In this document: positions 36,924 through 58,972 of the stretch, one piece after another
How positions within the stretch are numbered: position 1 is the first letter of the stretch
Layout: each line of letters begins with the position of its first letter
Source of the DNA: Myxococcales bacterium
GTDB lineage: Bacteria > Myxococcota_A > Bradymonadia > UBA7976 > UBA1532
Assembly: GCA_020633435.1 (NCBI GenBank)
Contig: JACKDP010000001.1
Location: forward strand, 517,359-581,358
Length of the DNA: 64,000 nucleotides
Direction: 5' to 3'
Position numbers and translations under genes: made by a program
The notes under the pieces: model-generated
What the model was told of the DNA's origin: nothing
The model's input: only the letters and a program-made list of their open reading frames with translations
Databases searched by the model: none

Positions 36924-36933
36924 CGGAGCACCC

Positions 36934-39357: not shown

Positions 39358-39545
39358 GGCGGTGCTCCTTGCTCTCTGGGCCATGCCATCTACTACGCCT
39401 TCGGCCCCAGTCCTGAGCCCCTCCCCCGGCCCCCGGCGGCACCATCACGTCCCGATTTTTCGGGCTTTGACCCCGTTGCGGCGCGTGTCACCGCGCAGTA
39501 CAACCGCTGTGGCAACTTGCGGCAAACAACGGCGAGGACTGCACG

Positions 39546-42595: not shown

Positions 42596-42603
42596 GAGCG
42601 GGG

Positions 42604-44427
42604 ATGTCGAAGAAGACGAAGCTGGAACTGACCTGGATCGGCAAGGACAAGCGGCCCCGCCTGGAGCCGCGCATCCTGCTCGAAGATCCCGAACTGAGCT
42701 ACGCCGCCGACCATCGGGTTCGGCAGGGCGACATCTTCGACAACATGCTGATCCACGGAGACAACCTGCTGGCTTTGAAGGCGCTGGAGCAGGACTTCAC
42801 CGGCGCCTTCAAGTGCGTCTACATCGACCCTCCGTTCAACACCCAGCAGGCGTTTGAGCACTACGACGATGGCGTGGAGCACTCGGTCTGGCTGTCACTC
42901 ATGCGCGAGCGCCTCTCCATCGTCCACCGGCTCATGCACCCCGAGGGGACGCTGTTCGTCCACATCGACGACAACGAGCTTGGCTACCTGATCGTCCTCC
43001 TCGACGAGGTGTTCGGGCGCACCAACCGCGTGTCCATCGTCACATTCAAGCAGGGCTCGGCGACCGGCCACAAGGCCATCAACCCCGGCTGCGTGACGAC
43101 CACGAACTTCGTGCTGATGTACGCCAAGGACAAGGCAGCCTGGAAGCCGCGGAGGGTCTTCACGGCTAGGGAGCGAGACAATCGCTACAACCAGTTCATT
43201 CCGAACATCGGCGACCACCACTCCAAGTGGCGAATCGTGACGCTGATGACCGCCTTCGCCGCCAGCCAGGGGGTCACGGAGACACAGGCCAGGGGTCTGG
43301 CTCGCAAGCAGCCCGACCAACTGGACGAGTTCGTGAAGGACAACGGGCCGAGCGTGGTGCGTCTCGCAAGGCCGTCCTACGACGCCGTCAGCAAGGCTGC
43401 CCAGGCGCTCATCGACGAGTCGAACGCGAACCCCGAAGTGGTGTTCCACCTCCCGCGGGAGGGGCACAAGGACTTCTACTTCATCCGGGGCGAACGAATC
43501 CTGTTCTACAAGGACAAGCTCAGGGAGATCGACGGGCAGTACGTTGCGGGTGAGCCGCTCACGACGCTCTGGGACGACCTCCTCTCCAACAACTTGCACA
43601 ACGAAGGTGGGGTCAGCTTCCCCAAGGGGAAGAAGCCCGAAGCCCTGATCAAGAGGGTCATCGACCTGTCCACCGAGCCCGGTGACTGGGTGCTCGACTC
43701 GTTCGCAGGCTCGGGCACGACGGGGGCGGTGGCCCACAAGGCCGGTCGAAGGTGGGTGATGGTCGAACTCGGTGACCACTGCCATACCCATGTCCTTCCC
43801 CGGCTCCGAGCGGTTATTGACGGGGCCGATTCCAGCGGGAGCACGCAGGCAACCCGATGGAAAGGCGGCGGCGGCTTCCGCTTCTGCCGCCTCGCGCCCT
43901 CCCTACTGGAGGAGGACAAGTGGGGCAACTGGGTCATCAACCGGGCCTACAACAAGGAGATGCTGGCGGAGGCCATGTGCAAGATCGAGGGCTTCCGCTA
44001 CGAGCCGAGCCCGACCATCTTCTGGATGCACGGCCAGTCCACCGAGACGGACTACCTCTACGTCACCACGCAGACCCTGACCCACGAGCAGTTGCAGGTC
44101 ATCAGCGCGGAGGTCGGTGACGAGCGCACGTTGCTCATCTGCTGCTCGGCCTTCCGAGCGCGGCTCGACCAGTTCCCGAACCTCACGGTGAAGAAGATCC
44201 CCGCAGCGGTGCTCGAACGCTGCGAGTGGGGCAAGGACGACTACTCGCTGAACGTCCAGACGGTCATGGGAGAGGAGCCCGAGGCGCCCGAGCCTGAACC
44301 CGACCAGTCCGCGGGCGCCACCGTGCCGCCGCCATCGTCGAAGAAGCGCAAGGGCCGCAAGCCGAAGATGCAGGAGTTGCCGCTGTTCGCCGCGGCCCAC
44401 CATGGCAAGTCGGGAGGTGACCAGTGA
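42604..44427 (+). CDS. Type III R-M Mod-like N6-adenine DNA methyltransferase
   Basis: DPPF motif (CVYIDPPFNT) precedes the SAM motif (VLDSFAGSGTTG). Confidence 0.85.
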   Translation: MSKKTKLELTWIGKDKRPRLEPRILLEDPELSYAADHRVRQGDIFDNMLIHGDNLLALKALEQDFTGAFKCVYIDPPFNTQQAFEHYDDGVEHSVWLSLMRERLSIVHRLMHPEGTLFVHIDDNELGYLIVLLDEVFGRTNRVSIVTFKQGSATGHKAINPGCVTTTNFVLMYAKDKAAWKPRRVFTARERDNRYNQFIPNIGDHHSKWRIVTLMTAFAASQGVTETQARGLARKQPDQLDEFVKDNGPSVVRLARPSYDAVSKAAQALIDESNANPEVVFHLPREGHKDFYFIRGERILFYKDKLREIDGQYVAGEPLTTLWDDLLSNNLHNEGGVSFPKGKKPEALIKRVIDLSTEPGDWVLDSFAGSGTTGAVAHKAGRRWVMVELGDHCHTHVLPRLRAVIDGADSSGSTQATRWKGGGGFRFCRLAPSLLEEDKWGNWVINRAYNKEMLAEAMCKIEGFRYEPSPTIFWMHGQSTETDYLYVTTQTLTHEQLQVISAEVGDERTLLICCSAFRARLDQFPNLTVKKIPAAVLERCEWGKDDYSLNVQTVMGEEPEAPEPEPDQSAGATVPPPSSKKRKGRKPKMQELPLFAAAHHGKSGGDQ

Positions 44428-47400
44428 ACCGCCTCGTCAACACCATCTCGGGTCGTCTGAGCCTCCGGCCCCCGCAGCGCCAGTCGCTGGAGATCCTCGA
44501 CCGCATCTGCGAGATCGCTGACCCGACCAAGGCGACCGATCTCGCAACCGCGCTCGGGATCATCAAGTCCGAGTACCCGTCGGTCACCGACTTCGAGCGG
44601 GACTTCCCCTCGCTGTGCTTCGCCCTCGCCACCGGCGTCGGCAAGACCCGGCTCATGGGCGCCTTCATCAGCTACCTCTACCTGACCAAGCGAAGCCGCC
44701 ACTTCTTCGTGCTGGCGCCCAACCTGACCATCTACAACAAGCTGATCGCCGACTTCACCCCCGGCACGCCCAAGTACGTCTTCCAGGGGATCTCGGAGTT
44801 CGTGACCGCCCCGCCGGTCATCATCACCGGCGACAACTACGAGAGCGGCGTCGGCGTCCGAGAGGAGGCCCGGCGCCAGATGGGCCTGTTCCGGCCCGGC
44901 GGCGAGGATGCCGTCCACATCAACGTCTTCAACATCAGCAAGTTCAACAAGGACACGGGGGGCAGGAAGGGCTCGCCCAGGATGCGGCGCCTGTCGGAGT
45001 ACATCGGTGAGAGCTACTTCGACTACCTGGCCGGGCTCGACGACCTGGTGGTGCTCATGGACGAGGCCCACCGCTACCGCGCCGACGCGGGTATGAAGGC
45101 CATCAACGAGTTGAAGCCCATCTTGGGCCTGGAGTTGACGGCGACCCCCTTCACCGAGTCGGCGAAGGGGCCGGTGGCCTTCGGCAACGCCATCTACGCC
45201 TACTCGCTGGCCGAGGCCATCGTGGACGGGTTCGTGAAGGAGCCCGCGGTCGCCACCCGCAAGGACTTCGACGCCAGCCAACTCGACGACGCGAAGTTGG
45301 AACGCATCAAGCTGGAGGACGGCGTGCGCTTGCACGAGCAGGTCAAGGCCGACCTCCAAGCCTACGCCGCCAACACCGGGCGCCCCTACGTCAAGCCGTT
45401 CATGCTGGTCATCGCCCGCGACACGACGCACGCCTCGGCCCTGATCGACCTGTTCAAGTCCGAGACGTTCTTCGAGGGGCGCTACGCCGACCGCGTGATC
45501 GAGGTTCACTCGGCCCTCAAGGGCGAGGAGAAGGAGGAGACGGTTGAGCGGCTGCTGGCCGTGGAAGACCCCGCCGAGCAGACGGAGATCGTCATCCACG
45601 TCAACATGCTCAAGGAGGGGTGGGACGTAACGAACCTCTACACCATCGTCCCGCTGCGGGCCGCCAACGCCCGCACCCTCATCGAGCAGTCCATCGGTCG
45701 CGGCCTGCGGCTGCCCTACGGCAAGCGTGTCCGCAAGTACGGCCTGCCCCCCACCCACCCTGCCGACCGGCTCACCATCGTCGCCCACGACAAGTTCCAA
45801 GAGATCGTGGACGAGGCCAACCGCGGTGACTCCATCATCCGCCGCATCGACACCATCTACATCGACCCGGAGGAGGCCGCCGACGCTCCGAAGCCGGTCG
45901 AGGTGCCCCCGCTGGTCGAGCAGATTCTTGGCGGAGCCGACCGGCCTACGGTGCCGGGCCTCGGCCCCGCCCCCGCGGGTGACCCGGCCCAGGGCACCGC
46001 CCCCACCCTGCCGACCAAGAAGACGCCGACGTTCCTGACGCCCACGGCGAAGGCGGTGGCGAAGGCGACGCTGACGGCGATCACCAAGAAGACCACGTTG
46101 CCGTCGGCGAAGACGCTTCTGCAACCGGAGCAGCAGAAGAAGCTGGTCGAGGAGGTGAAGGCGCAACTTCCCGACCAGCAGGAGCTACCGGGCATCGAGT
46201 CGGAGATCGAGGAGGTCGTCAAGCAGGCCACCGAAGCCTACGTTGACCTCTCCATCGACATCCCCGAGGTGACCGTCGTGCCCACCGGCGAGGTCACCAT
46301 CGTCTACGCCGACTTCGACCTCGACACGTCCAAGCTGCCTGCGCTCCAGCCCGTCGAGCGGGACATCTACATCCAACACCTGGCGAGCCACGAGCAGCAG
46401 CAGTTGTCTTCCGGCGGTGGTGGTGTCGGCTACGAGCGGCGCCTGGAAGATCACGTTGTCCGGGCGCTCATCGACTTCGACGACGTGGACTACGACGGCA
46501 ACGCCGACCTGCTCTACAAGCTCGCGGGCCAGATGGTCGCCCACCTCCAGGGCTACCTGCCCGACGAGGAGGCCGTGAAGAACGTGCTGGTCTACTACCA
46601 GTCGCGGATCGGCAACCTCGTCCACGGCCAGATGCTGGCCCACCGGCACGAGTTGACGACCGGCTACGAGGTGAAGGTGCTGTCCGGGCACCGTCCGCTC
46701 CAGCCCTCGGTGATCAAGCTCAAGCCGAGCGAGTCCCCCCGGAACTTCCGGGCGCCGGTGGACGACAAGCGCCGCATCCCGCAGATGGTGTTCGGCGGCT
46801 TCTCGAAGTGCTTGTACCCGCTCCAGAAGTTCCACTCGGACTCGGAGCGCCGGTTCGCGGTGCTGCTGGAGATGGACAAGGCCGTGCAGAAGTGGGTGAA
46901 GCCTGCGCGGGCGAACTTCCAGATCGTCCTCAAGGGCGGCTCGCTCTACGAGCCGGACTTCGTGGTCGAGGCCGACGACGCCTTCTACATCGCCGAGGTC
47001 AAGGCCGAGGGCATGGTGCAGGAGGCCGACGTGCTGGCGAAGGCCGAGGCCGCCGCGGTGTGGTGCAGGTCGGCGACGCAGGAGGGGGCGGGCGCCAAGC
47101 CCTGGCACTACCTGCTCATCCCCGCGGACAAGATCGCCGAGAACGCCTCGTTGGCGTGGCTGGCGAAGCAGTACGAGCACAAGGCCAGCGCCCCCGCCGA
47201 GGTCGTGTCCGAGGACGCGGGCGCCAAGGTGCTGCCGTTCAAGAAGCTGGAGGGCACGGAGATCAGGCCCTTCGAGAACTGCGTGCCGCTCTACGCCGAC
47301 CTCAGGATCGCCGCGGGCCGCTTCGGCGAGGAGCTGGCCGTGGACGCGGTGCCCCAGCAGGGCGAGGTGGAGAACCCCGAGGACTACGAGTGGGTCGCCT

Positions 47401-47744
47401 ACCGGGGGAGTTCCCGGCCCCGTCGCGGCCTGTTCGTAGCCCAGGTGGTCGGCGAGTCCATGAACAAGCGCATCCCCAACGGCGCCTGGTGCGTGTTCAA
47501 CCTCGAACACGGGGCCGATGGCGAAGGTGAGATCGTCCTCGCCCGGCACGACGAGATCCACGACGGCGACCTCGGCCAGTTCACCGTGAAGTTCTACCAG
47601 CGCGAGGTGCTCGACGACGACGGCGTGCGGATCACGCTGCGGCCCTCGTCCAGCGACCCGCAGTTCAAGAAGCCCATCGTGCTGGAGAACCTGGCCGAGG
47701 GCGACCTGCGGATCGTGGCCGAGTTCGTCGAGGTGCTGCGGTAG
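44424..47744 (+). CDS. Type III Res-like helicase-endonuclease fused to a LexA/UmuD-like S24 domain
   Basis: 1106 aa: Walker A (ATGVGKTRL), DEAH (VLMDEAHRY), PD-(D/E)xK-like nuclease motif (EPDFVVEADDAFYIAEVKAEG), then about 150 aa resembling an S24 peptidase (GESM, TVKF); GTG overlaps Mod stop. Confidence 0.8.
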   Translation: MNRLVNTISGRLSLRPPQRQSLEILDRICEIADPTKATDLATALGIIKSEYPSVTDFERDFPSLCFALATGVGKTRLMGAFISYLYLTKRSRHFFVLAPNLTIYNKLIADFTPGTPKYVFQGISEFVTAPPVIITGDNYESGVGVREEARRQMGLFRPGGEDAVHINVFNISKFNKDTGGRKGSPRMRRLSEYIGESYFDYLAGLDDLVVLMDEAHRYRADAGMKAINELKPILGLELTATPFTESAKGPVAFGNAIYAYSLAEAIVDGFVKEPAVATRKDFDASQLDDAKLERIKLEDGVRLHEQVKADLQAYAANTGRPYVKPFMLVIARDTTHASALIDLFKSETFFEGRYADRVIEVHSALKGEEKEETVERLLAVEDPAEQTEIVIHVNMLKEGWDVTNLYTIVPLRAANARTLIEQSIGRGLRLPYGKRVRKYGLPPTHPADRLTIVAHDKFQEIVDEANRGDSIIRRIDTIYIDPEEAADAPKPVEVPPLVEQILGGADRPTVPGLGPAPAGDPAQGTAPTLPTKKTPTFLTPTAKAVAKATLTAITKKTTLPSAKTLLQPEQQKKLVEEVKAQLPDQQELPGIESEIEEVVKQATEAYVDLSIDIPEVTVVPTGEVTIVYADFDLDTSKLPALQPVERDIYIQHLASHEQQQLSSGGGGVGYERRLEDHVVRALIDFDDVDYDGNADLLYKLAGQMVAHLQGYLPDEEAVKNVLVYYQSRIGNLVHGQMLAHRHELTTGYEVKVLSGHRPLQPSVIKLKPSESPRNFRAPVDDKRRIPQMVFGGFSKCLYPLQKFHSDSERRFAVLLEMDKAVQKWVKPARANFQIVLKGGSLYEPDFVVEADDAFYIAEVKAEGMVQEADVLAKAEAAAVWCRSATQEGAGAKPWHYLLIPADKIAENASLAWLAKQYEHKASAPAEVVSEDAGAKVLPFKKLEGTEIRPFENCVPLYADLRIAAGRFGEELAVDAVPQQGEVENPEDYEWVAYRGSSRPRRGLFVAQVVGESMNKRIPNGAWCVFNLEHGADGEGEIVLARHDEIHDGDLGQFTVKFYQREVLDDDGVRITLRPSSSDPQFKKPIVLENLAEGDLRIVAEFVEVLR

Positions 47745-47766
47745 ACCGGCATGTAGGAGAAAGGAC

Positions 47767-48168
47767 GTGAAGCAAGAGAACCTTGACGACCTCGTCGCCG
47801 CGGTGCTGGCCGTCAACAGCTACTCCATCGAGAAGGCGTGGGCGCTTCTCCCAAAGCTGCGTGAGGCAGGGCTGACGACGCCTGTGACCTTCCCTACGGA
47901 TCTCGGACCGGCGACCGTCAAGCTCGCGTCGGCGGGGTACGACCGCGGGTTGCTCACGGAGATGTTCGCCAAGCGCCTGCTCGGCCTCATGCAGGAGGCC
48001 GGGTCCGGGGCGCTGGACGAACTGGACGCCTTCGTCGAGGCCGACCGCAAGGACGACGCGGTGGCTCTGCTGGTGACCGTGCCGGGGATCGGCCCGAAGG
48101 TGGCCCGGACCGCCTGGGAGTTGCTCCGTTCGGGACGGGGCGCAGCGGGCGCAGCGAGCAAATCCTGA
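47767..48168 (+). CDS. small hypothetical protein with helix-hairpin-helix-like motif
   Basis: GTG with AGGAGA RBS; VTVPGIGPKVA resembles an HhH. Confidence 0.45.
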   Translation: MKQENLDDLVAAVLAVNSYSIEKAWALLPKLREAGLTTPVTFPTDLGPATVKLASAGYDRGLLTEMFAKRLLGLMQEAGSGALDELDAFVEADRKDDAVALLVTVPGIGPKVARTAWELLRSGRGAAGAASKS

Positions 48169-48245
48169 TCCCTTAGTTTCGAGCATTACTTGGGGTGAGG
48201 GATTTGCTCGCTTGCCTGGGTAGCGTGCCTCGCAGGAGGTGCAAC

Positions 48246-49553
48246 ATGCCCAACTTCCCGAGCCGCATCGACATCGCCAACTCGCCCGAGTATTTCCCGA
48301 TCACGGCGCTCATCGCCGCGGGCCTGTGGCCCGACCTGACTCCGCCCGCCAAGGCCCTGCTGCCCGTCCTGTGGGACTTCCACCGGGAGTACCCCGACGC
48401 CTGCCACCCGAACCGGAAGACCCTCGCCCGGCTGTCGGGCATCAGCCCGCCCTCCGTGTCGAACGCCCTGACGGTGCTGGAGGACATCGGCATCGTGCAG
48501 ACGATCCAGACGCCGGGGCCGAGGCCGAACACCTACAAGCTCAAGTGGACGAATCTCCGGGCGCCGAAGAAGGCTGCCGCCGACACCGGATCGCCCTACC
48601 GGCGTCCGAGTGCGGACTGGGAACTGCACATGGGGACTGACGCCGAGGGCCATGCGGTCGCCAAGTACGAGCGCAAGGGGGGTGGGCTCCACCGCATGTC
48701 CGACGGCTGCTTCATCCGGGGCCAGGTCGAGATGGTGATCCACGACCTGCTCGTGGCCTGGGGCGTTCCCCACTGGTCGGAGGTCGGGTACTGCGACCTC
48801 GGCATCAAGCTCCGGCACGCGAAGTCCGGCGACCTCAACCGGCAGGCCACCGTGGACTTCGTGGTGGCGCCGGGCTTGCTCGTCGAGCGCCTCGGCCTGC
48901 CAGCGACCCAGGGGTCGGCGAAGAAGTACCGGGCCAAGTCCGCCGCGAAGATGAAGGCCGCCCGGAAGGCCGGGTGGACGGTGCTGACCATCGAGCCTGA
49001 CCAGCGGCCCGGCGACTGGCTGCTGGAGCCCATCAGGAAGGCGTGGGCCGACGCGACCATCGACGAGGCGACCCGCCTCCGGCGGCTCCTCCAAGGCGCT
49101 GGGAAGCACGAGGAGTCGCACGGTCCGAGCCGGAAGCTCGACGCCCACATCGAAGATGCGAAGGCCCGGCTGGCGGGCAAGAAGGAGCCCCGCAAGAGCC
49201 GCGGCCTGACCATGCAGAAGCGCGGCGAACATGGGTTCCCCGTGACGTACCGCTGCGACCCCATCATCGTGCTGATGGAGCAGGCCCGCCCCGCACCCGA
49301 GCCCGAGGATGACCTCGACGACTGGTTCGACGAGGTGCCGAGCGCCTACGAGCCGCAGCGCCCGCCCGACCTGCCCGCTCCCGACGAGAGGATGCTCGGG
49401 CGGCTCCGCGACCTGGACGACGAGATCGCCGACCTCGACGACCAGATGGCGGCCCTCGACGATGACAGCGACGACTACCAGGCCCTGCTGACGCAGAAGT
49501 GGGAACTCGAAGGGAAGAAGGGCGACCTGGAGGCCCAGTGCTACATGCGGTGA
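48246..49553 (+). CDS. hypothetical protein with N-terminal winged-helix-like region (possible replication/maintenance function)
   Basis: AGGAGG RBS before ATG 48246; HTH-like NRKTLARLSGISPPSVSNALTVLEDIGIV; acidic C-terminal tail. Confidence 0.45.
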   Translation: MPNFPSRIDIANSPEYFPITALIAAGLWPDLTPPAKALLPVLWDFHREYPDACHPNRKTLARLSGISPPSVSNALTVLEDIGIVQTIQTPGPRPNTYKLKWTNLRAPKKAAADTGSPYRRPSADWELHMGTDAEGHAVAKYERKGGGLHRMSDGCFIRGQVEMVIHDLLVAWGVPHWSEVGYCDLGIKLRHAKSGDLNRQATVDFVVAPGLLVERLGLPATQGSAKKYRAKSAAKMKAARKAGWTVLTIEPDQRPGDWLLEPIRKAWADATIDEATRLRRLLQGAGKHEESHGPSRKLDAHIEDAKARLAGKKEPRKSRGLTMQKRGEHGFPVTYRCDPIIVLMEQARPAPEPEDDLDDWFDEVPSAYEPQRPPDLPAPDERMLGRLRDLDDEIADLDDQMAALDDDSDDYQALLTQKWELEGKKGDLEAQCYMR

Positions 49554-49744
49554 GGGTGCCTCGACGCGGTGCCCGCTTCGGCCTCCCGCTCGCGCACGAC
49601 CGCTTCGAGGTCGTACCGGACGGCGCCGCGGAGCCTCACCACGGGGATCTGCCCGTCCCGAGTCATGCGGCGGACCGTCGAGAGGCTCACGCCGAGGGCG
49701 TCTGCAAGCTCCGTGGCGGTGAGCAGGCGGTGCATGTTGCTCAT
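49541..49744 (-). CDS. excisionase-family HTH protein
   Basis: 67 aa from ATG with GGGGAGG RBS; LLTATELADALGVSLSTVRRMTRDGQIPVVRLRGAVRY. Confidence 0.6.
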   Translation of the reverse strand: MSNMHRLLTATELADALGVSLSTVRRMTRDGQIPVVRLRGAVRYDLEAVVREREAEAGTASRHPHRM

Positions 49745-49990
49745 GTTGGCCTCCCCGGAAGTCGAGTCCATGCACAGATCGCGGCCCATAGGACGACCAA
49801 CCGGGTCGAAACGGTCAGCGACGGTCACACAGTCGCCGCCGCGGCCTCGGGGCGTCCAGAACCGTCGCTGCGGATGGTTCTCGCCGGGCCAACCGTGGGG
49901 GTTGGGACGCCGAACGGTGGGGGTTGGCCGAAGGTAGGTGGATTCGGCCCGGTGCGGCCCGCGGGGTTGTGGCCCGCGGACATGCGCGGT

Positions 49991-50629
49991 TCAGCGGGCT
50001 TCGGCGACGGCGACTTCTGGCCCACCCACCGGACGGGCCTCGGCGAGCCTGCGTCGCAGGGTCGTCCGCGGGAGGCCGAGCATGTCGGCGACCTCGCGGA
50101 CGCTGTGCCCTTGGGCGATGAGGGCCTGGGCTGCACGAAGGTCGAGGCCACGCCGCGGGCGCCCGAACTTCACGCCACGCTCGCGGGCGCGAGCGACGCC
50201 TGCCTGGACGCGCTCTTGGATCAGGGCGTGCTCAAGTTCGGCGACCACCGCGGCGAGCGTGAACAGCGCCTTCCCGAGGGCGGTGGTCGTCTCGATGTTC
50301 TCCCTGACGGACACGAACTCGACCCTGCAACGGCGGAACTCGTCGAGGGCCTCCAGCAGGTGCTGGGTCGAGCGGGCGAACCTGTCGAACCGCCACACCA
50401 TCACCACGTCCACCTCGGCGCCGCGGACGGCGGCCATGAGGCCGTCCAGGCCGGGCCGGGCCTCGGTGGTGCCGGACACGCCGTCGTCGATGAACTCGTG
50501 AACGACCTGCCAGCCGCGCTGCGCGGCCACTCGGCGAAGGTCATCAAGCTGGAGCCCCACGTCCTGCCCGTGCCCGGCGGTGCTCACCCTGGCGTACAAC
50601 GCCGCCCGCGTCTTCCGGCTCGTCGCCAT
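49991..50629 (-). CDS. serine recombinase (resolvase/invertase family)
   Basis: AALYARVSTAGHGQD (catalytic Ser region), C-terminal HTH. Confidence 0.85.
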   Translation of the reverse strand: MATSRKTRAALYARVSTAGHGQDVGLQLDDLRRVAAQRGWQVVHEFIDDGVSGTTEARPGLDGLMAAVRGAEVDVVMVWRFDRFARSTQHLLEALDEFRRCRVEFVSVRENIETTTALGKALFTLAAVVAELEHALIQERVQAGVARARERGVKFGRPRRGLDLRAAQALIAQGHSVREVADMLGLPRTTLRRRLAEARPVGGPEVAVAEAR

Positions 50630-50690
50630 CCCGTCCTCCGCGTCGTCTCCCCCAACTACGGAGTGGGCCGGAAGTCTGAGCCCCGCGGGC

Positions 50691-50785
50691 TTCTGGCCCG
50701 GAGATTCTCGGGGGCGGGCGAGATTCTCCCTGATCGGGTTCTCGGCGTCTTGGCAGGCACCTTCCGCCGCGGGAAACGTCGCCAG
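50691..50785. repeat. three direct copies of GAGATTCTC, followed at about 50848-50882 by a palindrome CCGATC-N8-GATCGG
   Basis: Copies near 50691, 50710 and 50776, upstream of the serine recombinase gene. Confidence 0.5.
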
Positions 50786-51016
50786 CGAGATTCTCGACCG
50801 TCAGGATCGGTTCTTCGGCGAGAAGTTCCCTCTCCGGCGTGTCAGAACCGATTGAAAACCGATCTGGGTTCGGATCGGGGGGCGCGATCCGGGGACTCCG
50901 GGTCACGGACATTTTGCGACCGAGCGGGCCAACGGTCTGCGGCAGGGGGTTGACTCGGGCACACCCTCGGGCCAAGATGTATCCATTGGATACAGGGCGC
51001 CTGATGGCGCAGGGAG

Positions 51017-51298
51017 ATGGTGGTGAGAGAGTACACGGAGCCGGAAGGGGATGCGGCCCAGAACCTCGGCCAGTGGAGACGTGAGTGGGAAGAAATCCCC
51101 CCCTTCCCGTTCAGCGAGTATGACGCATCGGATCGAGCCGTTGACCGCCTCGTGGTGAACTTGCACCTGGCCCTCGACGAGGAGGACGAGATTCGAGAGG
51201 TGCTGGAGCACCTGCGATGCCTCGCTACCGACTACCACAAGTGGTCGGTTCGGGCGGGCAAGCTGCTGGAACACGTCGAAGCTCAGGCCCAACGGTAG
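51017..51298 (+). CDS. small hypothetical protein
   Basis: 93-aa acidic ORF, RBS-like GGGAG at the start. Confidence 0.35.
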   Translation: MVVREYTEPEGDAAQNLGQWRREWEEIPPFPFSEYDASDRAVDRLVVNLHLALDEEDEIREVLEHLRCLATDYHKWSVRAGKLLEHVEAQAQR

Positions 51299-51302
51299 AC
51301 TC

Positions 51303-51587
51303 GTGGCTACGTCCTCTCGGTCCAAGGAACTGCCGACCGGCGCCGAGCAAGTTCGCCTGATCTTGGCGGAACTCGGCTGGACGCATGAGGTGGCGGCGGA
51401 GCACCTCGGCGTGGGCCGCGTGACCGTCAGCCGGTGGGCGAGCGGCGCCCGCGACCCCGGCGAGCAGGTACTCCGGCACCTGCGGATGATCCATCACCTC
51501 CGGGGCCTGCTCGGCGACGACCTCTGGCAGCAGGCGATGGCCGACCTGGCGAGCAGTCAGGGCTCGGAGCGGGGAGCCGCCAAATGA
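51303..51587 (+). CDS. HTH DNA-binding protein
   Basis: AEQVRLILAELGWTHEVAAEHLGVGRVTVSRWASG, HTH-like. Confidence 0.5.
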   Translation: MATSSRSKELPTGAEQVRLILAELGWTHEVAAEHLGVGRVTVSRWASGARDPGEQVLRHLRMIHHLRGLLGDDLWQQAMADLASSQGSERGAAK

Positions 51588-52072
51588 CCGAACATGCGCA
51601 GCTCGACATCCCCGCCTTGGTGGAGGAGATCAACGCCGCCGAGGACGACCCGATGTGGAAGGCGTGGACGAAGGATCGCCTGCGGCTCCAAGACCAACTT
51701 CACGAGCTTCGCGCCGTCCGAGATGCTCTCGCCCGCAAGCTCCGGGCATTGGCGCCCACGACGCCGGGCGGGGACAAGAGGCCCATGACCCGGCGGGAGC
51801 AGCGGATGGCGATGGGCGGCGGCGGCCTGTGGCCGCTGGCCCAGGCTGCGGAGATGCTGCCCATGAAGGACAACGAGGCGAGGGGCTGGCTGCGCAACGA
51901 AGGGCTCGTCGGCGACCTGGCCGGGCGTGAGGTCGTGCATTGGGGCCGCGTGCTCGACGCGCCCTACGCCACGAAGGATGAGGCGCCGTCGGTGCCTGCG
52001 AAGCAGGAGACACGGCGCCGGAAGCCGCTCCCGCGGGTGCGCCTCGGTGGCTCGTCGGGGGCGTCACGATGA
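51584..52072 (+). CDS. hypothetical protein
   Basis: ATG overlaps the previous stop; stop overlaps the integrase start. Confidence 0.4.
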   Translation: MTEHAQLDIPALVEEINAAEDDPMWKAWTKDRLRLQDQLHELRAVRDALARKLRALAPTTPGGDKRPMTRREQRMAMGGGGLWPLAQAAEMLPMKDNEARGWLRNEGLVGDLAGREVVHWGRVLDAPYATKDEAPSVPAKQETRRRKPLPRVRLGGSSGASR

Positions 52073-53202
52073 GCCCTCCAAGGAGTGCGCGACCCAAGCC
52101 CTTCTCGCTCGACATGATCAAGTGCCGGATCGTCCGCGGGCCGCACCCGGACGACCCGAACCGTTGGTACTGGCAGGCGGTCACCTACGGAGACGGTGAG
52201 CAGCGCACCATCTGGACGGGTTGGGGGTCGGTCGAGGAGGTGAAGGCCGCGCTGGCGCCGTTGCTGATGGGGATGCAGGCGGCCCCGTCGCGCCGTGAAG
52301 ACCGGGTGTCCACTGTGCAGGATCTCCTTGAGGTCTGGTTGGCGTGGCAACTCGGCCAACCGAACCTGAGCGAAGGGCGCAAGCTCAACTCGAAGAAGGA
52401 GGCAGAGCACGTCGCCGCCGTGATCGGTGATGTGCTCATCCTGCGGCTCGACACGACGACCCTGACGGAGTACCAGCGCGTGCGGCTGCGCGAGGGGGCC
52501 TCGACCGGCGTGATCCGCAACGAGATCAGCACCGTGATCCAGGCGTGGAACTGGGGCGGGGAGCGTGGGCTCGCACCGGAGCGGCGGCTGCGACGCCCCC
52601 GTTTGCAGCACAAGTCTGTGCGGAACGACTACGTTCCCGACCTGGTGGAGTTCTGGAAGGCCGTGGACGCGCTGCCCGACTCCAGACCCTGGGCTCGCAC
52701 CATGCTCCTCCTGCTGGGTGCGACGGGGGCGAGGCCAAGCGAGATCGCCGCCCTGACCTGGGAGGACATCCACTGGCGACGCCGTACCGTCCGTCTGGAC
52801 GGCAAGACCGGGAAGCGCCTGGCAGTCGTGAGCCAAGAGGTCTTGGACGAGTTGGCGCCGCACCGCCCCGACCCCGCGACTGGCCGCGTCCTCTCCGTGA
52901 GCTTGACCACGGCACGGGTGGACATCCGCAAGATCCTGCGGGACGCCTGCGTTGCGGCCAACGTGACGCCGTTCCTCCCGATGTCCATCCGCAAGATGGT
53001 CGAGAACGCGATGTTCGACGCTGGGGCCGACCCCGGCGTCGTCTCCCGGCAGCTTGGGCACACGCCGGAGGTGTCCTTGAGGCACTACCGCAGGGCGAAG
53101 TCGGCTCGCGTGGACGAGGTTCTCGCTCGTGCGGGCATCGGCACCAGGCCGGACGGCAACGTCGTGTCGCTGGCCGAGCACCGCAAGGCCAAGGACTCGT
53201 GA
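52069..53202 (+). CDS. tyrosine-type site-specific integrase
   Basis: Catalytic-domain motifs (LLGATGARPSEIAALTWEDI; LGHT...SLRHY) with the Tyr near the C-terminus. Confidence 0.85.
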   Translation: MSPPRSARPKPFSLDMIKCRIVRGPHPDDPNRWYWQAVTYGDGEQRTIWTGWGSVEEVKAALAPLLMGMQAAPSRREDRVSTVQDLLEVWLAWQLGQPNLSEGRKLNSKKEAEHVAAVIGDVLILRLDTTTLTEYQRVRLREGASTGVIRNEISTVIQAWNWGGERGLAPERRLRRPRLQHKSVRNDYVPDLVEFWKAVDALPDSRPWARTMLLLLGATGARPSEIAALTWEDIHWRRRTVRLDGKTGKRLAVVSQEVLDELAPHRPDPATGRVLSVSLTTARVDIRKILRDACVAANVTPFLPMSIRKMVENAMFDAGADPGVVSRQLGHTPEVSLRHYRRAKSARVDEVLARAGIGTRPDGNVVSLAEHRKAKDS

Positions 53203-53288
53203 CCTGTACAGCCCGACCTGTACAGCCGCAGGAGCGGCTGTCGTAACATGCTGAAACCATGCGACAAGCTGGCACAGGTGGCGGCGTT

Positions 53289-53318
53289 CAACATCAAGTG
53301 GAAGCCGGGCAACGAGCC
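53289..53318. repeat. attR: 30-bp direct repeat, right copy
   Basis: caacatcaagtggaagccgggcaacgagcc, followed in frame by the likely original gene tail (...NEPTTNLYA, stop). Confidence 0.8.
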
Positions 53319-53406: not shown

Positions 53407-55497
53407 TCAGGACGTGAGGCGGTCGAAAGCCTGCTGGCGGGCCAGGAGCGTAGGCGACGGGGGCTCGCCCGCGAGGCGGTCGAAGCGGTCAGTGAGCAAC
53501 TTCTGCATCAGCTCGGTATGCGCCGCCGGCAGGCGCTCGAAGTGGGGCCAGAGGAGGTCCAGCGCCTCGTCCGCGGCGGCGCGGGCCTCGGCGGCCCGGC
53601 CGAGGGCAGCGAGGACGTCGCCGCTGCTGTCCATCGCGTTTGCAAGGTCAGGCTCGAACGCGTCCGGACGCGACGACGCAAGACGGCGATAGATACCCAC
53701 CGCCTCCGCCGTCGCTGACAACGCCTCCTCAAGACGACCCAACGATGAGATGTCACCGCCCAGGTTGTTGAGGCTCATGGCAAGGTCAGGCTCGAACGCG
53801 TCCGGACGCGACGACGCAAGACGTCGATACACGTCCACCGCCTCCGCCGTCGCTGACAACGCCTCCTCAAGACGACCCAACGATGAGAGCCGATTGCCCA
53901 GGTTGACCAGGCTCATGGCAAGGTCAGGCTCGAACGCGTCCGGTCGCGACGACGCAAGATGCCGATACACGTCCACCGCCTCCGCCGTCGCTGACAACGC
54001 CTCCTCAAGACGACCCAACGATGAGAGCCGATTGCCCAGGTTGACCAGGCTCATGGCAAGGTCAGGCTCGAACGCGTCCGGACGCGACGACGCAAGATAC
54101 CGATACACCTCCACCGCCTCCGCCGTCGCTGACAACGCCTCCTCTCGACGACCCAACGACGAGAGGTCAACGCCCAGGTTGTTCAGGCCACCCGCAAGGT
54201 TCGGCTCGAACGCTTCAAGACGCGACGACGCAAGACGGCGATAGATACCCACCGCCTCCATCGTCGCTGACAATGCCTCCTCAAGACGACCCAACGATGA
54301 GAGTCGATTGCCCAGGTTGTTCAGGCTCATGGCAAGGTCTGGCTCGAACGCGTCCGGACGCGACGACGCAAGACGGCGATCGAGACCCACCGCCTCCGTC
54401 GTCGCTGACAACGCCTCCTCAAGACGACCCAAAGATGAGAGCCGATTGCCCAGGTTGTTCAGGCTCGTGGCGAGGTCAGGCTCAAACGCGTCTGGACGCG
54501 ACAGTGCAAGACGGCGATAGATACCCACCGCCTCTGTCGTCGCTGACAACGCCTCCTCTCGACGACCCAACGAGGAGAGCCCAATGCCCAGGTCGGTCAG
54601 GCTCATGGCAAGATCGGGTTCGAACGCGTCCGGACGCGACGACGCAAGACGGCGATAGATACCCACCGCCTCCGCCGTCGCTGACAACGCCTCCTCTCGA
54701 CGACCCAACGACGCAAGGTCACGGCCCAGGCTGGTCAGCGCCCTCGCAACGTCTGCGTCCGGGCGTGCCGACGCGAGGCCTCTGTAGGACCCCACGGCTT
54801 CCGTTGACGCCGATAACGCTTCTGCGACCTCGTTCGCCAGGCCCATGTGCCCACTCCGCACCAAGGCCGCCAGCGCGCCAACCATCGCGTCGAAGCGCGC
54901 CGGATCCTCGGGAGCAAGCGCGAGCGCCGCTCGCGCCCGTCGCTCGGCGAGCTCCACCTCGGCAGGCGAGGCCCCATCTGACCGTTGCACGGGCGAAGTA
55001 ACATCGGGCTGCGAGACAGGAACCGGCGCGACCATCGGCTCAACAAGCAGGGTGTTGATAGACCAGAGATCGGGCGCAGCCAGCCGCACTACCGGCCGGG
55101 CCCACGCGGGCATGGCCACGACCAGGGCGTGCAGCCCGGATCGGCGCAGCGGCTCTCGGTGCTCGTTCCAGCGTTGTGCCGCGTTGAACCATGCGGTTCG
55201 CCAATCCTGCTCCGGACCAAAGGCCTCGCACCAGACCACGCCCCCTCTGGGCGCCGCCAGGATGCGACCGAGTGCGTCGCTCAGGTCCCCCGGATGCTCG
55301 CAGAGAACGGTCTCGATCGGCCAGCCACGGGCACCCGCCAGCGCCATCGTTCGGGCCCGAAGAATTCGAGCTGGAAAGCGGTCTGCCGCGACCACCGTCG
55401 CGATGACGAACCGATCTGCGAAATCCAGGAGATCACTGAGCAATTCCCAGGGCCGCTCCTCCAGGAGCGGCTGCGCTGCGAGGTGGTCTTCGGCCAC
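53407..55497 (-). CDS. TPR-like repeat protein (about nine 46-aa repeats), partner of the upstream NTPase
   Basis: Repeat unit RPDAFEPDLAMSLNNLGNRLSSLGRLEEALSATAEAV.VYRRLASS; GTG start 4 nt after the NTPase stop (ORF extends to 55554). Confidence 0.65.
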   Translation of the reverse strand: MAEDHLAAQPLLEERPWELLSDLLDFADRFVIATVVAADRFPARILRARTMALAGARGWPIETVLCEHPGDLSDALGRILAAPRGGVVWCEAFGPEQDWRTAWFNAAQRWNEHREPLRRSGLHALVVAMPAWARPVVRLAAPDLWSINTLLVEPMVAPVPVSQPDVTSPVQRSDGASPAEVELAERRARAALALAPEDPARFDAMVGALAALVRSGHMGLANEVAEALSASTEAVGSYRGLASARPDADVARALTSLGRDLASLGRREEALSATAEAVGIYRRLASSRPDAFEPDLAMSLTDLGIGLSSLGRREEALSATTEAVGIYRRLALSRPDAFEPDLATSLNNLGNRLSSLGRLEEALSATTEAVGLDRRLASSRPDAFEPDLAMSLNNLGNRLSSLGRLEEALSATMEAVGIYRRLASSRLEAFEPNLAGGLNNLGVDLSSLGRREEALSATAEAVEVYRYLASSRPDAFEPDLAMSLVNLGNRLSSLGRLEEALSATAEAVDVYRHLASSRPDAFEPDLAMSLVNLGNRLSSLGRLEEALSATAEAVDVYRRLASSRPDAFEPDLAMSLNNLGGDISSLGRLEEALSATAEAVGIYRRLASSRPDAFEPDLANAMDSSGDVLAALGRAAEARAAADEALDLLWPHFERLPAAHTELMQKLLTDRFDRLAGEPPSPTLLARQQAFDRLTS
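53510..54890. repeat. 138-bp tandem repeats (about 9 copies), coding
   Basis: The motif gtcaggctcgaacgcg recurs at 138-bp spacing; central copies nearly identical. Confidence 0.8.
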
Positions 55498-55501
55498 CGG
55501 G

Positions 55502-56800
55502 CTAGCTCGCGGCCTGTGATTCCAGACGGTCTGCGAGATCGAGAACGACGTCACGAACGATGGGGTGGACGTCGTACCACTCCGACCCGTTCTGGTAGCA
55601 GAGCACCAGGTGGCTGTCGAAGTACCGCGCCAGGCTGCCCAGGCCCTCCAGGTCCCTCAACTCGGCCTCGTGGGAGCGAGCGATCCGAGCCAGCCACCGA
55701 ACGTCCTCATGAGGAATCGGGGTGAACTGGGCCCGCAAGCGCTCCAGGGCAGCCCGGCGCGCGTCGGCCGATGCCGGCAGCGTGCGAGCCTCCAGGGCGA
55801 CGGTCTGCAGGACGCGGACGAGGTCGCGCAGGTGCCCGCCCGTCGCCAGAATCAGCTCCTCGAGAGCGTCGCGATCGCCCAGAACCACCGACCAGTCCGT
55901 GCGCTTGCCGACGAGCTGGACGAGACGCTCGATCCCAGGCGCGTAGGGCTGGCCGTCGCCATCGTCGACATAGGCCCGGACCTTCTGAGCGGGCAACGTC
56001 AGCAGGCCCGCTCCCGAATACGGGCTGCCGATGTTCGGCCGGCGGATGCGGAGCCAGGGCGGGACCGTATAGATGACATGGGTGGATGGCAGCTTGAGCT
56101 TGTCATCGTGGTCGGCGAACAAGCGTTCGAGTGACTCATGCACCCGCGCCTCGGTCTCATTGGTCCCACGGGCATGCTCGACCGAGTCGACGAGGACGAC
56201 GAGTGCCGTGCCCGGTCGGGCTGCCTCCAGCGCGAGTACACACTCCGCGACAAACCCACGCACCTCCCTGGCGAACGCGCCCAGGCTGGTCCCGAGCGCC
56301 TTCTGCACTTCCTGGCGAAAGAGCGGGTTGCTCTTGAGCTCTACCTTCATCCCCGCGAGGCTCACGTCCTTCAACGTGACGATGGTCCCGGTGACGAAGC
56401 CCCAGAGGCGCTGGCCGAGCGCGGCTCGCGCCGGGCTCTCCGGCAGGAGCGCTTCGTCGGTGAGCTTCTCGGCCAGGGCACCACAGAGGGCCAGCAGGAA
56501 GTCGGTGATGTCGATGGGGGTGTGGAGATCCAGGTAGTCCTCCACGTCGATGAGAACGACCGTGTAGTCCTCAGCGCCCAACTCACTGCGCAGACGCCTC
56601 AGCTCGGTGCTCTTGCCTGCGCCGCGGTAGCCGGACAGCAGCTGAGCACTCTCGCCCTCGGAGAACAGGATGGTCTCTTTGAGGCGAAGCACGACGTCGG
56701 ACTGGTCCTCGTACAGCGGGTAGTAGCGGGGGTCCTCCGGGTTCAACGGCACGTCAGCCATCTCTCGGAAGAAGCGCTGCCGCCGGTCGCGATCGGTCAT
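55502..56800 (-). CDS. P-loop NTPase (AAA/STAND-like)
   Basis: Walker A LLSGYRGAGKSTEL; Walker-B-like ALVVLVDSVEH; helical C-terminus. Confidence 0.65.
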   Translation of the reverse strand: MTDRDRRQRFFREMADVPLNPEDPRYYPLYEDQSDVVLRLKETILFSEGESAQLLSGYRGAGKSTELRRLRSELGAEDYTVVLIDVEDYLDLHTPIDITDFLLALCGALAEKLTDEALLPESPARAALGQRLWGFVTGTIVTLKDVSLAGMKVELKSNPLFRQEVQKALGTSLGAFAREVRGFVAECVLALEAARPGTALVVLVDSVEHARGTNETEARVHESLERLFADHDDKLKLPSTHVIYTVPPWLRIRRPNIGSPYSGAGLLTLPAQKVRAYVDDGDGQPYAPGIERLVQLVGKRTDWSVVLGDRDALEELILATGGHLRDLVRVLQTVALEARTLPASADARRAALERLRAQFTPIPHEDVRWLARIARSHEAELRDLEGLGSLARYFDSHLVLCYQNGSEWYDVHPIVRDVVLDLADRLESQAAS

Positions 56801-57447
56801 CGGGCCTCCGTCGTCCTCAGGTGCCGCGCAGTATAGGAGCCACGGTCGTCGGACACCACGGCATCGCGCACAGCCGTCATCGACCCTGGAACGCCGCCCA
56901 CGGGCTCATCGGGGCCCCCGAGGGCTCGTGGTACTGACGCGAACCCACCAGGGGGCAACTCCGGGACTCCCCTGAGGGCGTGGCCATCGAAGTGGCGGCC
57001 CGCAGGAACTGGCCACTCGATGGGCGGACCCGGGGGAAGGGGTACGCCGCCACCGGATCGGTGACGGCCGCTCGACAGCCTCCCCAGGCCCACTGCGAAA
57101 GGCAACGGCCTTCCTTTTTGTTTCGTCGACCGCTAGGAAAGGTTCCTCCGCAGCAGTAGGCAGCATGGACCTGGGCAGGACTTCTTCCGAGTGGCTCACC
57201 ACGAGCACGACAGCCGAGTAGGTCCAGGCGTTTCTGCCCGACCCCCCTGGAGCCGGCCCTCAGCCTGACGGCCGAGGACTCGCGGAGCGCGCCAACCGGG
57301 CACTCGGTGCCATCCTGTTTGGCGACTGCACCTGCCGCCTCACGCCTCCGCCTTCCGGCCAGCAGGGCCCAGGTGATAGCGTCGTCCCGCAGACCCCCGC
57401 CAGCAGGCGCGAGGTGTGCCCCCCTTGCCTGGTCCCAAGGAGGCGCC

Positions 57448-58032
57448 ATGAGCACGGTCCTCGTCCTGGCCAACGCCGTGGTCGACCAGCTTCCAGAGAC
57501 CCACAGCCCGGTTCCCTTCGTCGAAGCCTGGGCCGCGGTGGCGAAGGTCGAGGTCGTGCGCCAGGTCTTCGACGATCAGAACGATCTCAGCCAGCTGTTG
57601 AGGCGGTTCGCCACCGGGGGTCCCGCCCGGGTGGTCTGTCTCGCCGGCCATGGCGAGGGTGGCCACCCCGGCAGCCTCGGCCCGGGCATCGACCTGCCAG
57701 CCGCCCTGACAAGCGCCTTCCCGCGCGGAGCGCACCGGCCGCGCCGCCGAGGCCTGCTGACCGTGGGCTGCGAAGTCGACGCGGCGGCGGTCCTGGCCGG
57801 CACGGGCAGTGGCCTGGACTGGATCGCCGGCTGCCGCCGGCGGGTACCGTGGCTCGTCGCGGTCCACCAGGGCCTGCTGTTCCTTCACTCCCTCCTCGTG
57901 GGGCGCCCGACCGGAGACCCCGACCAGGTCCTGTCCACCATCTCCGCCGAGACGGCCGCCAGCTGGGTCTCCGCGGACCACCGGTCGCTGGTGGAGTTCG
58001 GCGTGACCGCGCGCCCGGTCGTCGAGCCGTGA
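57448..58032 (+). CDS. hypothetical protein with possible caspase-like His/Cys dyad
   Basis: GGAGG RBS before ATG; VVCLAGHGEGG and LLTVGCEVDA are spaced like a protease dyad (speculative). Confidence 0.4.
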   Translation: MSTVLVLANAVVDQLPETHSPVPFVEAWAAVAKVEVVRQVFDDQNDLSQLLRRFATGGPARVVCLAGHGEGGHPGSLGPGIDLPAALTSAFPRGAHRPRRRGLLTVGCEVDAAAVLAGTGSGLDWIAGCRRRVPWLVAVHQGLLFLHSLLVGRPTGDPDQVLSTISAETAASWVSADHRSLVEFGVTARPVVEP

Positions 58033-58081
58033 CCGCACTGGTCGCCCTCTCGGAGCCCGTTGATGTTTGCCTCCGGGCTCC

Positions 58082-58095
58082 CTACAGTTCTGTAG
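58082..58095. promoter_or_regulatory. perfect palindrome CTACAGttCTGTAG overlapping the antitoxin RBS (candidate operator)
   Basis: 6-bp arms with 2-bp spacer, about 15 nt upstream of the antitoxin ATG. Confidence 0.45.
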
Positions 58096-58109
58096 AAGGA
58101 GGTGCCCCC

Positions 58110-58400
58110 ATGTCCCGCAGCCAGATCTCCGCTTTCGTCTCCGACGAGACGCGCGCTCGCCTGGAGCGCTACGTCGCCGCGCACGGGATGAAGAAGGCCG
58201 CGGTCGTCGAGCGGGCGCTGCTGCACCACCTCCAGGCGCTCGAGGAGCTTCCCGCTGACATCGTGCTCCCGCCTCGCTTGCTCCTGGAACCCGATGGCTT
58301 CCGTCGCCTGGTCGAACGCGTGGAGGAGGCCGGTGAGCCGACCGCGGCGATGAAGGTGCTCTTCGGTGAGGTGGTTGACCCCGCGAACGATCCGACGTGA
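58110..58400 (+). CDS. ribbon-helix-helix antitoxin (DUF1778/TacA-like)
   Basis: MSRSQISAFVSDETRARLERYVAAHGMKKAAVVERALLHHL, RHH-like; stop overlaps toxin start. Confidence 0.65.
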   Translation: MSRSQISAFVSDETRARLERYVAAHGMKKAAVVERALLHHLQALEELPADIVLPPRLLLEPDGFRRLVERVEEAGEPTAAMKVLFGEVVDPANDPT

Positions 58401-58930
58401 TCGAGGTCCGTCAGCTCCGGGCTGCCGACGACCGGGCGGTGTTCTCGTGCGGCCAGCCCGACCTGGACCGCTTCTTTCTACGCTACGCCGGGCAGAACCA
58501 GTTCAAGCACCACCTCGGCGTCACCTGGGTCGCCGTCGACGGTGACCAGGGGGATCGCATCCTCGGCTTCGCGACAGTGAGCGCGTCGCAGATCGAAGCC
58601 ACCGGGCTGCCACCCGAGCTGCGCCGGCGCCTGCCCCGCTATCCCCTGCCCGTCCTCCGGCTCGCCCGCCTGGGCGTCGACCAGTCGGCGCAGGGGCGTG
58701 GCGTGGGACTGCTGCTCCTGAAGTCCGTGTTCGTCCTGGCTCGGCAGATGGCCCGGGACGTCGGGTGCGTTGGTGTCGTCGTGGACGCGAAGGCGGAGGC
58801 CATGGCCTTCTACGGGCGGTTCGGGTTCGAGGTCATCGACGGGCTGGTTGAAGGCGAGCTGGGCGACCGGCCGGTGGCGACCCCGATGTTTCTGCCGCTC
58901 GGCCTGATTCCAGCCATCGAGCCCGACTGA
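58397..58930 (+). CDS. GNAT-family acetyltransferase toxin (TacT/KacT-like)
   Basis: GNAT core LARLGVDQSAQGRGVGLLLL...AFYGRFGF; GTG overlaps antitoxin stop (GTGA). Confidence 0.7.
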   Translation: MIEVRQLRAADDRAVFSCGQPDLDRFFLRYAGQNQFKHHLGVTWVAVDGDQGDRILGFATVSASQIEATGLPPELRRRLPRYPLPVLRLARLGVDQSAQGRGVGLLLLKSVFVLARQMARDVGCVGVVVDAKAEAMAFYGRFGFEVIDGLVEGELGDRPVATPMFLPLGLIPAIEPD

Positions 58931-58972
58931 GACCAACGCGGGCGCCCCGCAAACCAGCCTACGAGGGTCCCC

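Follow-up and report, generated by a model that had tools for sequence, protein, structure and literature searches.

Our analysis of a 64,000-nucleotide (nt) stretch of the genome of a Myxococcales bacterium (assembly GCA_020633435.1, contig JACKDP010000001.1, positions 517,359 to 581,358 of the forward strand; this whole stretch is hereafter the window) revealed a conserved binary module, in which an ORC/STAND-type ATPase, encoded by gene A, is accompanied by a protein with a characteristic N-terminal domain (the N-domain), encoded by gene B and usually extended by a diversifying array of tetratricopeptide repeats (TPRs). In the window, genes A and B form a real, translationally coupled two-gene unit that combines an active-looking P-loop ATPase with a TPR-array protein. 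The pair is most likely a sensor of non-self or conflict, comparable to a nucleotide-binding leucine-rich repeat (NLR) receptor that is encoded in two pieces, and we give this immune reading about an even chance.

The unit lies on the reverse strand and comprises the following:

55502..56800, reverse strand: gene A, a 432-amino-acid (aa) AAA+ ATPase consisting of a nucleotide-binding domain (NBD) with a helical insert, a lid and a winged helix (open reading frame, ORF, call)
56805..56809, reverse strand: Shine-Dalgarno-like GGAGG, 4 nt 5' of the gene A ATG (read from the sequence)
53407..55497, reverse strand: gene B, the 696-aa partner, consisting of the N-domain, a helical linker, the TPR array and a C-terminal cap (ORF, start context and partner alignment)

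The gene A product is identical in sequence to NCBI MCB9544699.1, where it is named 'hypothetical protein'. Read from its first GTG (55554), the ORF of gene B would span 53407-55554(-), encode 715 aa and overlap gene A by 53 nt. Because five homologous partners align from the GTG at 55497, which lies 4 nt past the gene A TAG, we placed the N-terminus there, giving a 696-aa product and a 4-nt gap. The original prediction, made from the letters of the window alone, of a 432-aa P-loop NTPase separated by 4 nt from its partner was thus confirmed by the ORFs, by this start codon and by the partner alignment.

The pairing extends well beyond the window. Across 185,579 species genomes (one genome per species), the ATPase family occupies 339 loci, with 2-3 copies in some genomes. 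Its hosts are mainly Myxococcota (Cystobacter, Archangium, Sorangium, Nannocystis and Myxococcus), and it was also found in Acidobacteriota, Planctomycetota (Pirellulaceae), Verrucomicrobiota (Verrucomicrobiales), Actinomycetota (Solirubrobacterales and Actinoallomurus), Gammaproteobacteria and Spirochaetia. In 85 of the 88 loci that we fetched, the gene immediately after that of the ATPase, in the same orientation, encodes an N-domain protein; the three exceptions are one contig end and two ATPase fusions in Archangium. Junctions between the two genes vary from an overlap of 14 nt to a gap of 20 nt. In both Archangium fusions (L039 6980-9049 and L047 4109-6673), the C-terminus of the ATPase is joined to an ATPase of the AAA_15/AAA_21 (ABC/OLD-type) kind and no gene for an N-domain protein comes after it, an alternative extension of the same ATPase.

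No third gene belongs to the module as a rule: clustering of all flanking ORFs found none common to more than 9 of 83 loci, and no transposase or integrase was conserved beside the pair in these 83. The strict co-encoding of an AAA+ ATPase with a TPR protein, together with the common use of TPR arrays as co-chaperone modules, would suit an AAA+ chaperone that works with a TPR co-chaperone to assemble or remodel a cellular complex. We consider such a role improbable, as no client gene is conserved nearby and the exchange of the TPR tail for TIR and NACHT modules, described below, does not fit it. Neither is the ATPase a housekeeping AAA protein held in core synteny, an outcome that would have spoken against an immune role: the distribution of the pair is patchy, and its neighbourhoods differ widely and are unrelated to one another.

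Some of these neighbourhoods contain genes of conflict systems, including toxin-antitoxin genes, a type III-like methyltransferase belonging to the operon of the pair, Fic/RelE and type I-E cas genes; toxin-antitoxin, methyltransferase or cas genes occur in five of 11 neighbourhoods annotated with Pfam, contexts that are anecdotal. In a gammaproteobacterial lineage (L096 9001-16484; also L005/L050), the pair is followed by a 1114-aa type III-like methyltransferase (PADLOC E 1.6e-189), which in L096 overlaps the stop codon of the partner, with VapB upstream and Fic and RelE downstream; the pair and the methyltransferase may form a three-gene variant in this lineage. Plasmids carry a full-length relative with 35% identity, along with several others that are more distant (25-28%). 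A plasmid of Nostoc sp. UHCC 0302 (L092 5929-13037) encodes a distant relative of the ATPase (28% identity) and then a 1844-aa WD40 protein, whose N-terminus ('NQVREEFRK...APDLESW') is weakly N-domain-like (hhalign E 0.0015, probability 17%) and is treated here as a lead, not as a member of the family. A CHAT-TPR protein is encoded close to this Nostoc ATPase, and the Acidisarcina plasmid pACPOL1 (L091) likewise encodes a CHAT protein near the pair.

Gene A falls within the ORC/Cdc6-STAND continuum and outside every defined STAND family. Its motifs are as follows:

56606..56632, reverse strand: Walker A, GYRGAGKST (aa 57-65; alignment)
56177..56203, reverse strand: Walker B strand, LVVLVDSVE (aa 200-208; alignment, with a strand at 200-205 in the model)
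55820..55840, reverse strand: lid motif, GGHLRDL (aa 321-327; alignment, between model helices 310-320 and 324-337)
55547..55576, reverse strand: winged-helix motif, YDVHPIVRDV (aa 409-418; alignment, with the model hairpin 399-404/406-411)

In an alignment of 84 homologues, the invariant residues include G57, R59, G60, G62 and K63 of Walker A, D205, S206 and E208 of Walker B, and G321, G322, L324 and R325 of the lid motif, which contains neither GxP nor any proline. The winged-helix motif, which sits in the winged-helix hairpin, retains D410 and P413 in all sequences and H412 in nearly all. The lid residue R325 appears to resemble the sensor-2 arginine of ORC/Cdc6, and YDVHP resembles the MHD motif of NB-ARC proteins. 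We assigned gene A to the continuum because its lid arginine is ORC/Cdc6-like while its winged-helix motif is MHD-like.

An AlphaFold2 model of gene A, with the 84 homologues as input, reached a predicted local distance difference test (pLDDT) of 92.6 and a predicted template modelling score (pTM) of 0.91. It comprises an alpha/beta core interrupted by a helical insert at aa 98-194, a lid of helices at aa 287-337 and a winged helix at aa 345-411. Structurally, it is matched best by ORC/Cdc6, TnsC and archaeal Walker ATPases, each of which has a winged helix; alignments over 228-270 residues were also obtained with CED-4, Apaf-1, plant NLRs, MalT and Avs3. At the level of sequence, the Pfam search returned no match to NACHT or NB-ARC, and the scores against curated STAND models stayed below their cutoffs (AAA_16, 27.4 bits with a cutoff of 32.6; nSTAND_NTPase5, 18.9 with a cutoff of 34). 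Matches to AAA_22 and nSTAND_NTPase5 were weak and confined to the P-loop, and matches in a PDB sequence search with the gene A profile were restricted to P-loop segments. The classification by hidden Markov models first envisaged for the NTPase therefore led to none of the expected classes, with no NACHT, NB-ARC, AAA_16 or other curated STAND threshold passed. The family itself is uniform and stand-alone: the 120 homologues listed measure 320-581 aa, nearly all of them 420-475, the size of the ATPase alone, and NCBI names them 'hypothetical protein' or 'AAA family ATPase'.

The partner amounts to more than a split-off sensor, as gene B begins with its own conserved domain of about 160 aa, which the original prediction had overlooked. 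The part of gene B that precedes the repeats is divided as follows:

55018..55497, reverse strand: N-domain (aa 1-160), an alpha/beta domain, conserved and unnamed, built from five beta-alpha units
54772..55017, reverse strand: helical linker (aa 161-242) with one very degenerate TPR-like unit (unit 0; weak TPR_Slam match at aa 229-252)

The N-domain is marked by the motifs FWLGFxF, VWxEA, NEHRExLRR and AAPDLWSI, and its residues N111 and R114 are invariant in 72 sequences. It has neither a name nor a match in Pfam, NCBIfam or PADLOC. Searched with a single sequence, it yielded one close relative, and with a six-sequence profile, 18; an exhaustive profile search of representatives then recovered 1550 cluster representatives (50% identity clusters) at E<=1e-3 and 966 at E<=1e-10, in which the domain lies nearly always at the protein N-terminus. 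Its predicted structure suggests a P-loop-like fold; the Walker A motif is lacking, and the domain would be NTPase-like and catalytically inactive. An origin of gene B as a duplicated NBD of gene A was considered and dropped, because the profiles of the N-domain and the ATPase, when compared, showed no homology (probability 1%).

Behind the linker, gene B continues into the repeats, which are arranged as follows:

53668..54771, reverse strand: eight TPR units of 46 aa (138 nt), aa 243-610 (Tandem Repeats Finder, unit table, identity matrix and Pfam)
53530..53667, reverse strand: ninth, degenerate unit, with 48-56% DNA identity to units 1-8
53806..54081, reverse strand: units 6 and 7, the sole near-identical pair, with 97.8% DNA identity (3 differences per 138 nt)

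The count of about nine 46-aa TPR-like repeats made in the original prediction was accurate, as eight good units and a degenerate ninth are present and two Pfam models match gene B above threshold (TPR_10, E 5.7e-38, 128 bits with a cutoff of 27.5; TPR_12, E 3.3e-30, 104.5 bits with a cutoff of 30.1). Tandem Repeats Finder reported the interval 53642-54711 with a period of 138, 7.8 copies, 89% matches, no indels and a score of 1604. The further description of the copies as almost identical applies to units 6 and 7 and not to the other pairs among units 2-8, which share 78-92% DNA identity; unit 1 shares 72-80% with the rest.

Amino-acid variation among units 2-8 is concentrated at unit positions 10, 13, 14, 17, 18, 25, 33, 37, 38 and 41. 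In the Pfam register, where position 2 of TPR_1/TPR_2 corresponds to unit position 10, five of these variable positions are helix A positions 2, 5, 6, 9 and 10; positions 2, 5, 6 and 9 of TPR helix A, which correspond to unit positions 10, 13, 14 and 17, line the concave, ligand-binding face. Pairwise differences among units 2-8 amount to 124 non-synonymous versus 4 synonymous at the ten variable positions and 42 versus 104 elsewhere, a count that is descriptive only because the ten positions were picked for their variability.

The repeats turn over and homogenise. Tandem repeats of 138 or 144 nt are present in 38 of 72 partner genes (2-15.4 copies, 75-99% match), and the number of units per partner gene ranges from 2 to 15 between species. 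Strains of Cystobacter fuscus also differ: at two syntenic loci with 93.7% nucleotide identity, the orthologous partner contains 10 units in Cbf 10 (L021 8310-10757) and 11 in NCWS (L023 8289-10901), all of 48 aa. These units are strain-specific, with PAAR versus PAAS endings and RAALGD versus RAVLGD, and the exceptions are the degenerate final unit and a small number of variant ones. Because the residues of each strain recur through nearly all of its units, the C. fuscus arrays are direct evidence of concerted evolution in the repeat array. The recent expansion or homogenisation that had been read from the window alone is thus upheld by the range between species, by the change of copy number between strains and by these shared strain-specific residues. 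Repeat number was compared in the C. fuscus strains, and the locus closest to that of the window (L009 8298-10500) was left out, because numerous indels of 1-5 nt within the repeats disrupt the ORF of its partner; the region is about the same length, and in another assembly the product is truncated to 294 aa (P0121). The arrays may be misassembled in these metagenome-assembled genomes (MAGs), or else the gene may be decaying there.

In rare partners, the N-domain is followed by modules of other kinds. Specifically, a TIR domain lies behind the N-domain in L089, directly after an ATPase homologue of 38% identity; the partner in L084 carries PNP_UDP nucleosidase, NA-iREase3, pentapeptide and WD40 domains, and its nucleosidase part matches the PADLOC 'PN-superfamily' effector model (E 3e-26); the partner in L070 carries NACHT; and protein kinase, trypsin and EAD1 modules each occur as a single case among representatives. 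NLR-like conflict systems of multicellular bacteria use such modules (Kaur et al. 2020, PMC7159879; Kaur et al. 2021), and the STAND defence families that have been surveyed carry the same module types, with most of their sensors TPR-like (Lee et al. 2026, PMC13581612).

In the proposed mechanism, the N-domain would dock on the ATPase and thereby couple to it whatever is fused behind the N-domain. The concave face of the TPR array would bind a ligand, either a protein or a peptide, and ligand binding would free the ATPase from a closed, ADP-type state, upon which the ATPase could swap its nucleotide and oligomerise, as NLR/Avs and ORC-type proteins do. We leave the output step to candidates because the common form lacks an enzymatic effector; these include sequestration of the ligand, a winged-helix/ATPase oligomer that acts on DNA, and a signal to an unlinked effector. 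More tentatively, the ATPase and the Walker-A-less N-domain could constitute a heteromeric NLR-type switch, in which the N-domain would serve as a constant adaptor that plugs interchangeable modules into an ATPase hub; most of these modules would be self-diversifying TPR arrays, and now and then TIR, nucleosidase-NACHT-WD40, kinase or protease domains would take their place. In its common, effector-less form, such a switch might provide defence in a toxin-free manner: a phage protein could be caught in oligomers driven by ATP, for instance, or the ATPase could be loaded onto DNA that invades the cell.

Several results weigh against the immune reading. First, effector domains are scarce: Pfam identified none in either window protein, partners that carry only TPRs, and thus lack an effector domain, make up 62 of the 72 fetched and 64 of 101 representatives, and no known domain was found in the N-terminal or upstream ORF extensions of ATPase homologues, where effector domains were looked for. 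Second, the pair corresponds to no system in PADLOC, a check named in the original prediction. In PADLOC-DB 2.0.0, the best match of gene A has an E of 0.032 and gene B matches only the generic 'TPR' model (2e-7), PADLOC gave no match for the homologues of the pair in L096 and L089, and NCBIfam held no significant match for either protein of the window. Third, the top fold matches of gene A are DNA-handling AAA+ proteins rather than NLRs, the GxP of STAND proteins is replaced in its lid by an Arg-containing motif, and the N-domain model is of medium confidence (pLDDT 74, 16 input sequences). Finally, six of the 11 Pfam-annotated neighbourhoods are purely metabolic or housekeeping, and no relatives were found in 50,697 phage genomes and 2.9 million viral contigs; this last absence is neutral for defence and removes one argument for mobility, and we count it here on the negative side. 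Because no effector and no known-system match were found and the neighbourhoods are mixed, we hold the immune reading to about one half. The NLR-like sensor pair that had first been proposed thus survives in part: the two-gene unit and its build of NBD, lid and winged helix stand, while the lack of a curated STAND match, of an effector and of GxP does not agree with it. A description of the pair was not found in the full text of the papers searched, including Kaur 2020/2021 and Lee et al. 2026, a search that did not extend to Lee's 589-clade tables.

The main rival is a regulatory ATPase switch, that is, a non-immune signalling or transcription device in which the TPR partner would detect some endogenous protein or metabolite, with the ATPase regulating distant genes by binding DNA with its C-terminal winged helix. 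MalT-type and ORC-type proteins are models for such regulation, and regulatory STAND-TPR proteins are plentiful in the host phyla. The absence of an effector domain, the many metabolic neighbourhoods, the ORC/Cdc6-like lid arginine and the likeness to the winged-helix folds of ORC/Cdc6, TnsC and archaeal Walker ATPases would all agree with it, as would the interspersion of non-defence STAND clades with defence clades (Lee et al. 2026, PMC13581612). However, the distribution is patchy and multi-copy, with no conserved target gene nearby; quick turnover of the array, with variation at a few helix-A positions, would be unusual for a fixed endogenous ligand; and an exchange of the tail for TIR, nucleosidase-NACHT-WD40, trypsin or EAD1 is a usual mark of conflict systems. 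We therefore regard the regulatory switch as possible, if on balance unlikely.

The immune reading gains further context from a comparison with known systems. With STAND/NLR-like receptors (Avs, bacterial NACHT and AP-ATPase-TPR), the pair shares a P-loop NBD, a lid, a winged helix and a large TPR-type sensor, as well as hosts that are mainly Myxococcota, Actinomycetota and cyanobacteria-like 'multicellular' lineages, fast repeat turnover, and module exchange with TIR, nucleosidase, NACHT, WD40, trypsin and EAD1. It differs from them in that two proteins are involved, so that sensor and effector are not on the NTPase polypeptide, and in that the repeat protein has a Walker-A-less, P-loop-like N-terminal domain of its own. 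Further, its common form carries no effector, its lid has an Arg motif in place of GxP, and it remains below curated STAND thresholds and absent from PADLOC. Gene A resembles ORC/Cdc6-type AAA+ proteins in its NBD-lid-winged helix build and lid arginine; in contrast to ORC/Cdc6, TnsC and the archaeal 'Walker-type ATPase' (Pfam ATPase_2), it is no single-copy factor of replication or transposition, it is partnered by an N-domain protein, and it is distributed patchily, with 2-3 copies in some genomes and no origin or transposase context.

For the TPR array, fungal and bacterial NLRs with highly similar internal repeats offer a comparison case. Concerted evolution, few variable surface positions and a copy number that changes between strains are common to both; in fungal and bacterial NLRs of this kind, the units measure 34 or 42 aa, whereas those of the pair measure 46 or 48 aa and the array lies on a separate polypeptide. 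For the N-domain, the iSTAND of the MoxR-vWA ternary systems (Kaur et al. 2020, PMC7159879) is similar in that an inactive NTPase-like domain would be the constant part, with variable other parts, and in that both occur in similar kinds of bacteria. The pair has no MoxR or vWA genes near it, however, and the N-domain matches no Pfam model; the likeness is conceptual only.

Should the pair prove to be an immune sensor, it would mean that bacterial NLR-type receptors can be built from two separate proteins joined by a dedicated adaptor domain, and that such a receptor needs no fused toxin. Its TPR arrays would offer a possible bacterial model of how NLR sensors diversify, because they combine concerted evolution with copy-number change between strains. 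If it is instead a regulatory switch, it would still represent an undescribed ATPase-TPR signalling family. A definition of the N-domain would make it possible to recognise as one system hundreds of gene pairs from Myxococcota, Acidobacteriota and Actinomycetota that are annotated as 'hypothetical protein' and 'tetratricopeptide repeat protein'.

The pair is located next to a 15.8-kb island, the near boundary of which is as follows:

53289..53318, forward strand: attR of the island, a 30-bp direct repeat and the boundary that leaves the gene pair outside

The counterpart of this repeat, attL (37467-37496), differs from it by one mismatch, and zero chance matches are expected; attL lies inside the 3' end of an AhpC/TSA peroxiredoxin gene, and attR lies downstream of a tyrosine integrase gene. 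The island (37467-53318) encodes a DrmD-like SNF2 helicase (PADLOC E 6.7e-203), a type III methyltransferase (2.9e-186) and a type III restriction enzyme (7e-221), as well as a resolvase, helix-turn-helix proteins and the integrase. In the related MAG locus L009, which is syntenic on both sides with 83-91% nucleotide identity over shared blocks, window position 53289 is joined straight to window position 37496, constituting an empty att site, and genes A and B are retained. Because the site is empty in L009 and the pair is kept, the gene pair is outside the island and older than its insertion, despite a G+C content below that of the core (0.65-0.68 at 53-57 kb versus 0.71-0.82 at 1-37 kb). Both the placement of the pair just outside attR and its lower G+C content had been correctly seen beforehand.

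These observations bear on a mobile-element function, in which the ATPase would be a target selector like TnsC, MuB or IstB that belongs to the adjacent island or to a decayed transposon. We regard this as very improbable: L009 retains the pair at the same place without the island, no transposase or integrase is conserved by the pair in the 83 loci, and the partner is a TPR protein and not a transposase or a TniQ/TnsD-type protein. In the last two respects, the pair also differs from Tn7-like TnsC/MuB selectors. The reading as a transposon was rejected on the empty site of L009.

Other features of the window lie apart from the pair. Repeats of the CCTGTACAGCC type occur near both ends of the island, and the type III restriction enzyme of the island (44424-47744, forward strand) has a C-terminal match to Peptidase_S24 (LexA-like; aa 981-1099, 28.8 bits with a cutoff of 23.3), an unusual fusion that might link restriction to self-cleavage control. 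On the other side of the pair, a 2.1-kb segment (56860-58969) is missing from the syntenic L009. Its ORF at 57307-58032 (forward strand) has no Pfam or PADLOC match and, by eye, contains caspase-like 'VVCLAGHG' and 'LLTVGCEVD' motifs. A small ORF (58098-58400) overlaps a GNAT acetyltransferase gene (58397-58930), and the two look like a toxin-antitoxin pair. Finally, window positions 35400-37200, in the high-G+C core, contain dense, imperfect direct repeats rich in GCC and GAG (families D2, D5, D9 and D12) and long overlapping ORFs, and probably encode an Ala/Glu-rich low-complexity protein.

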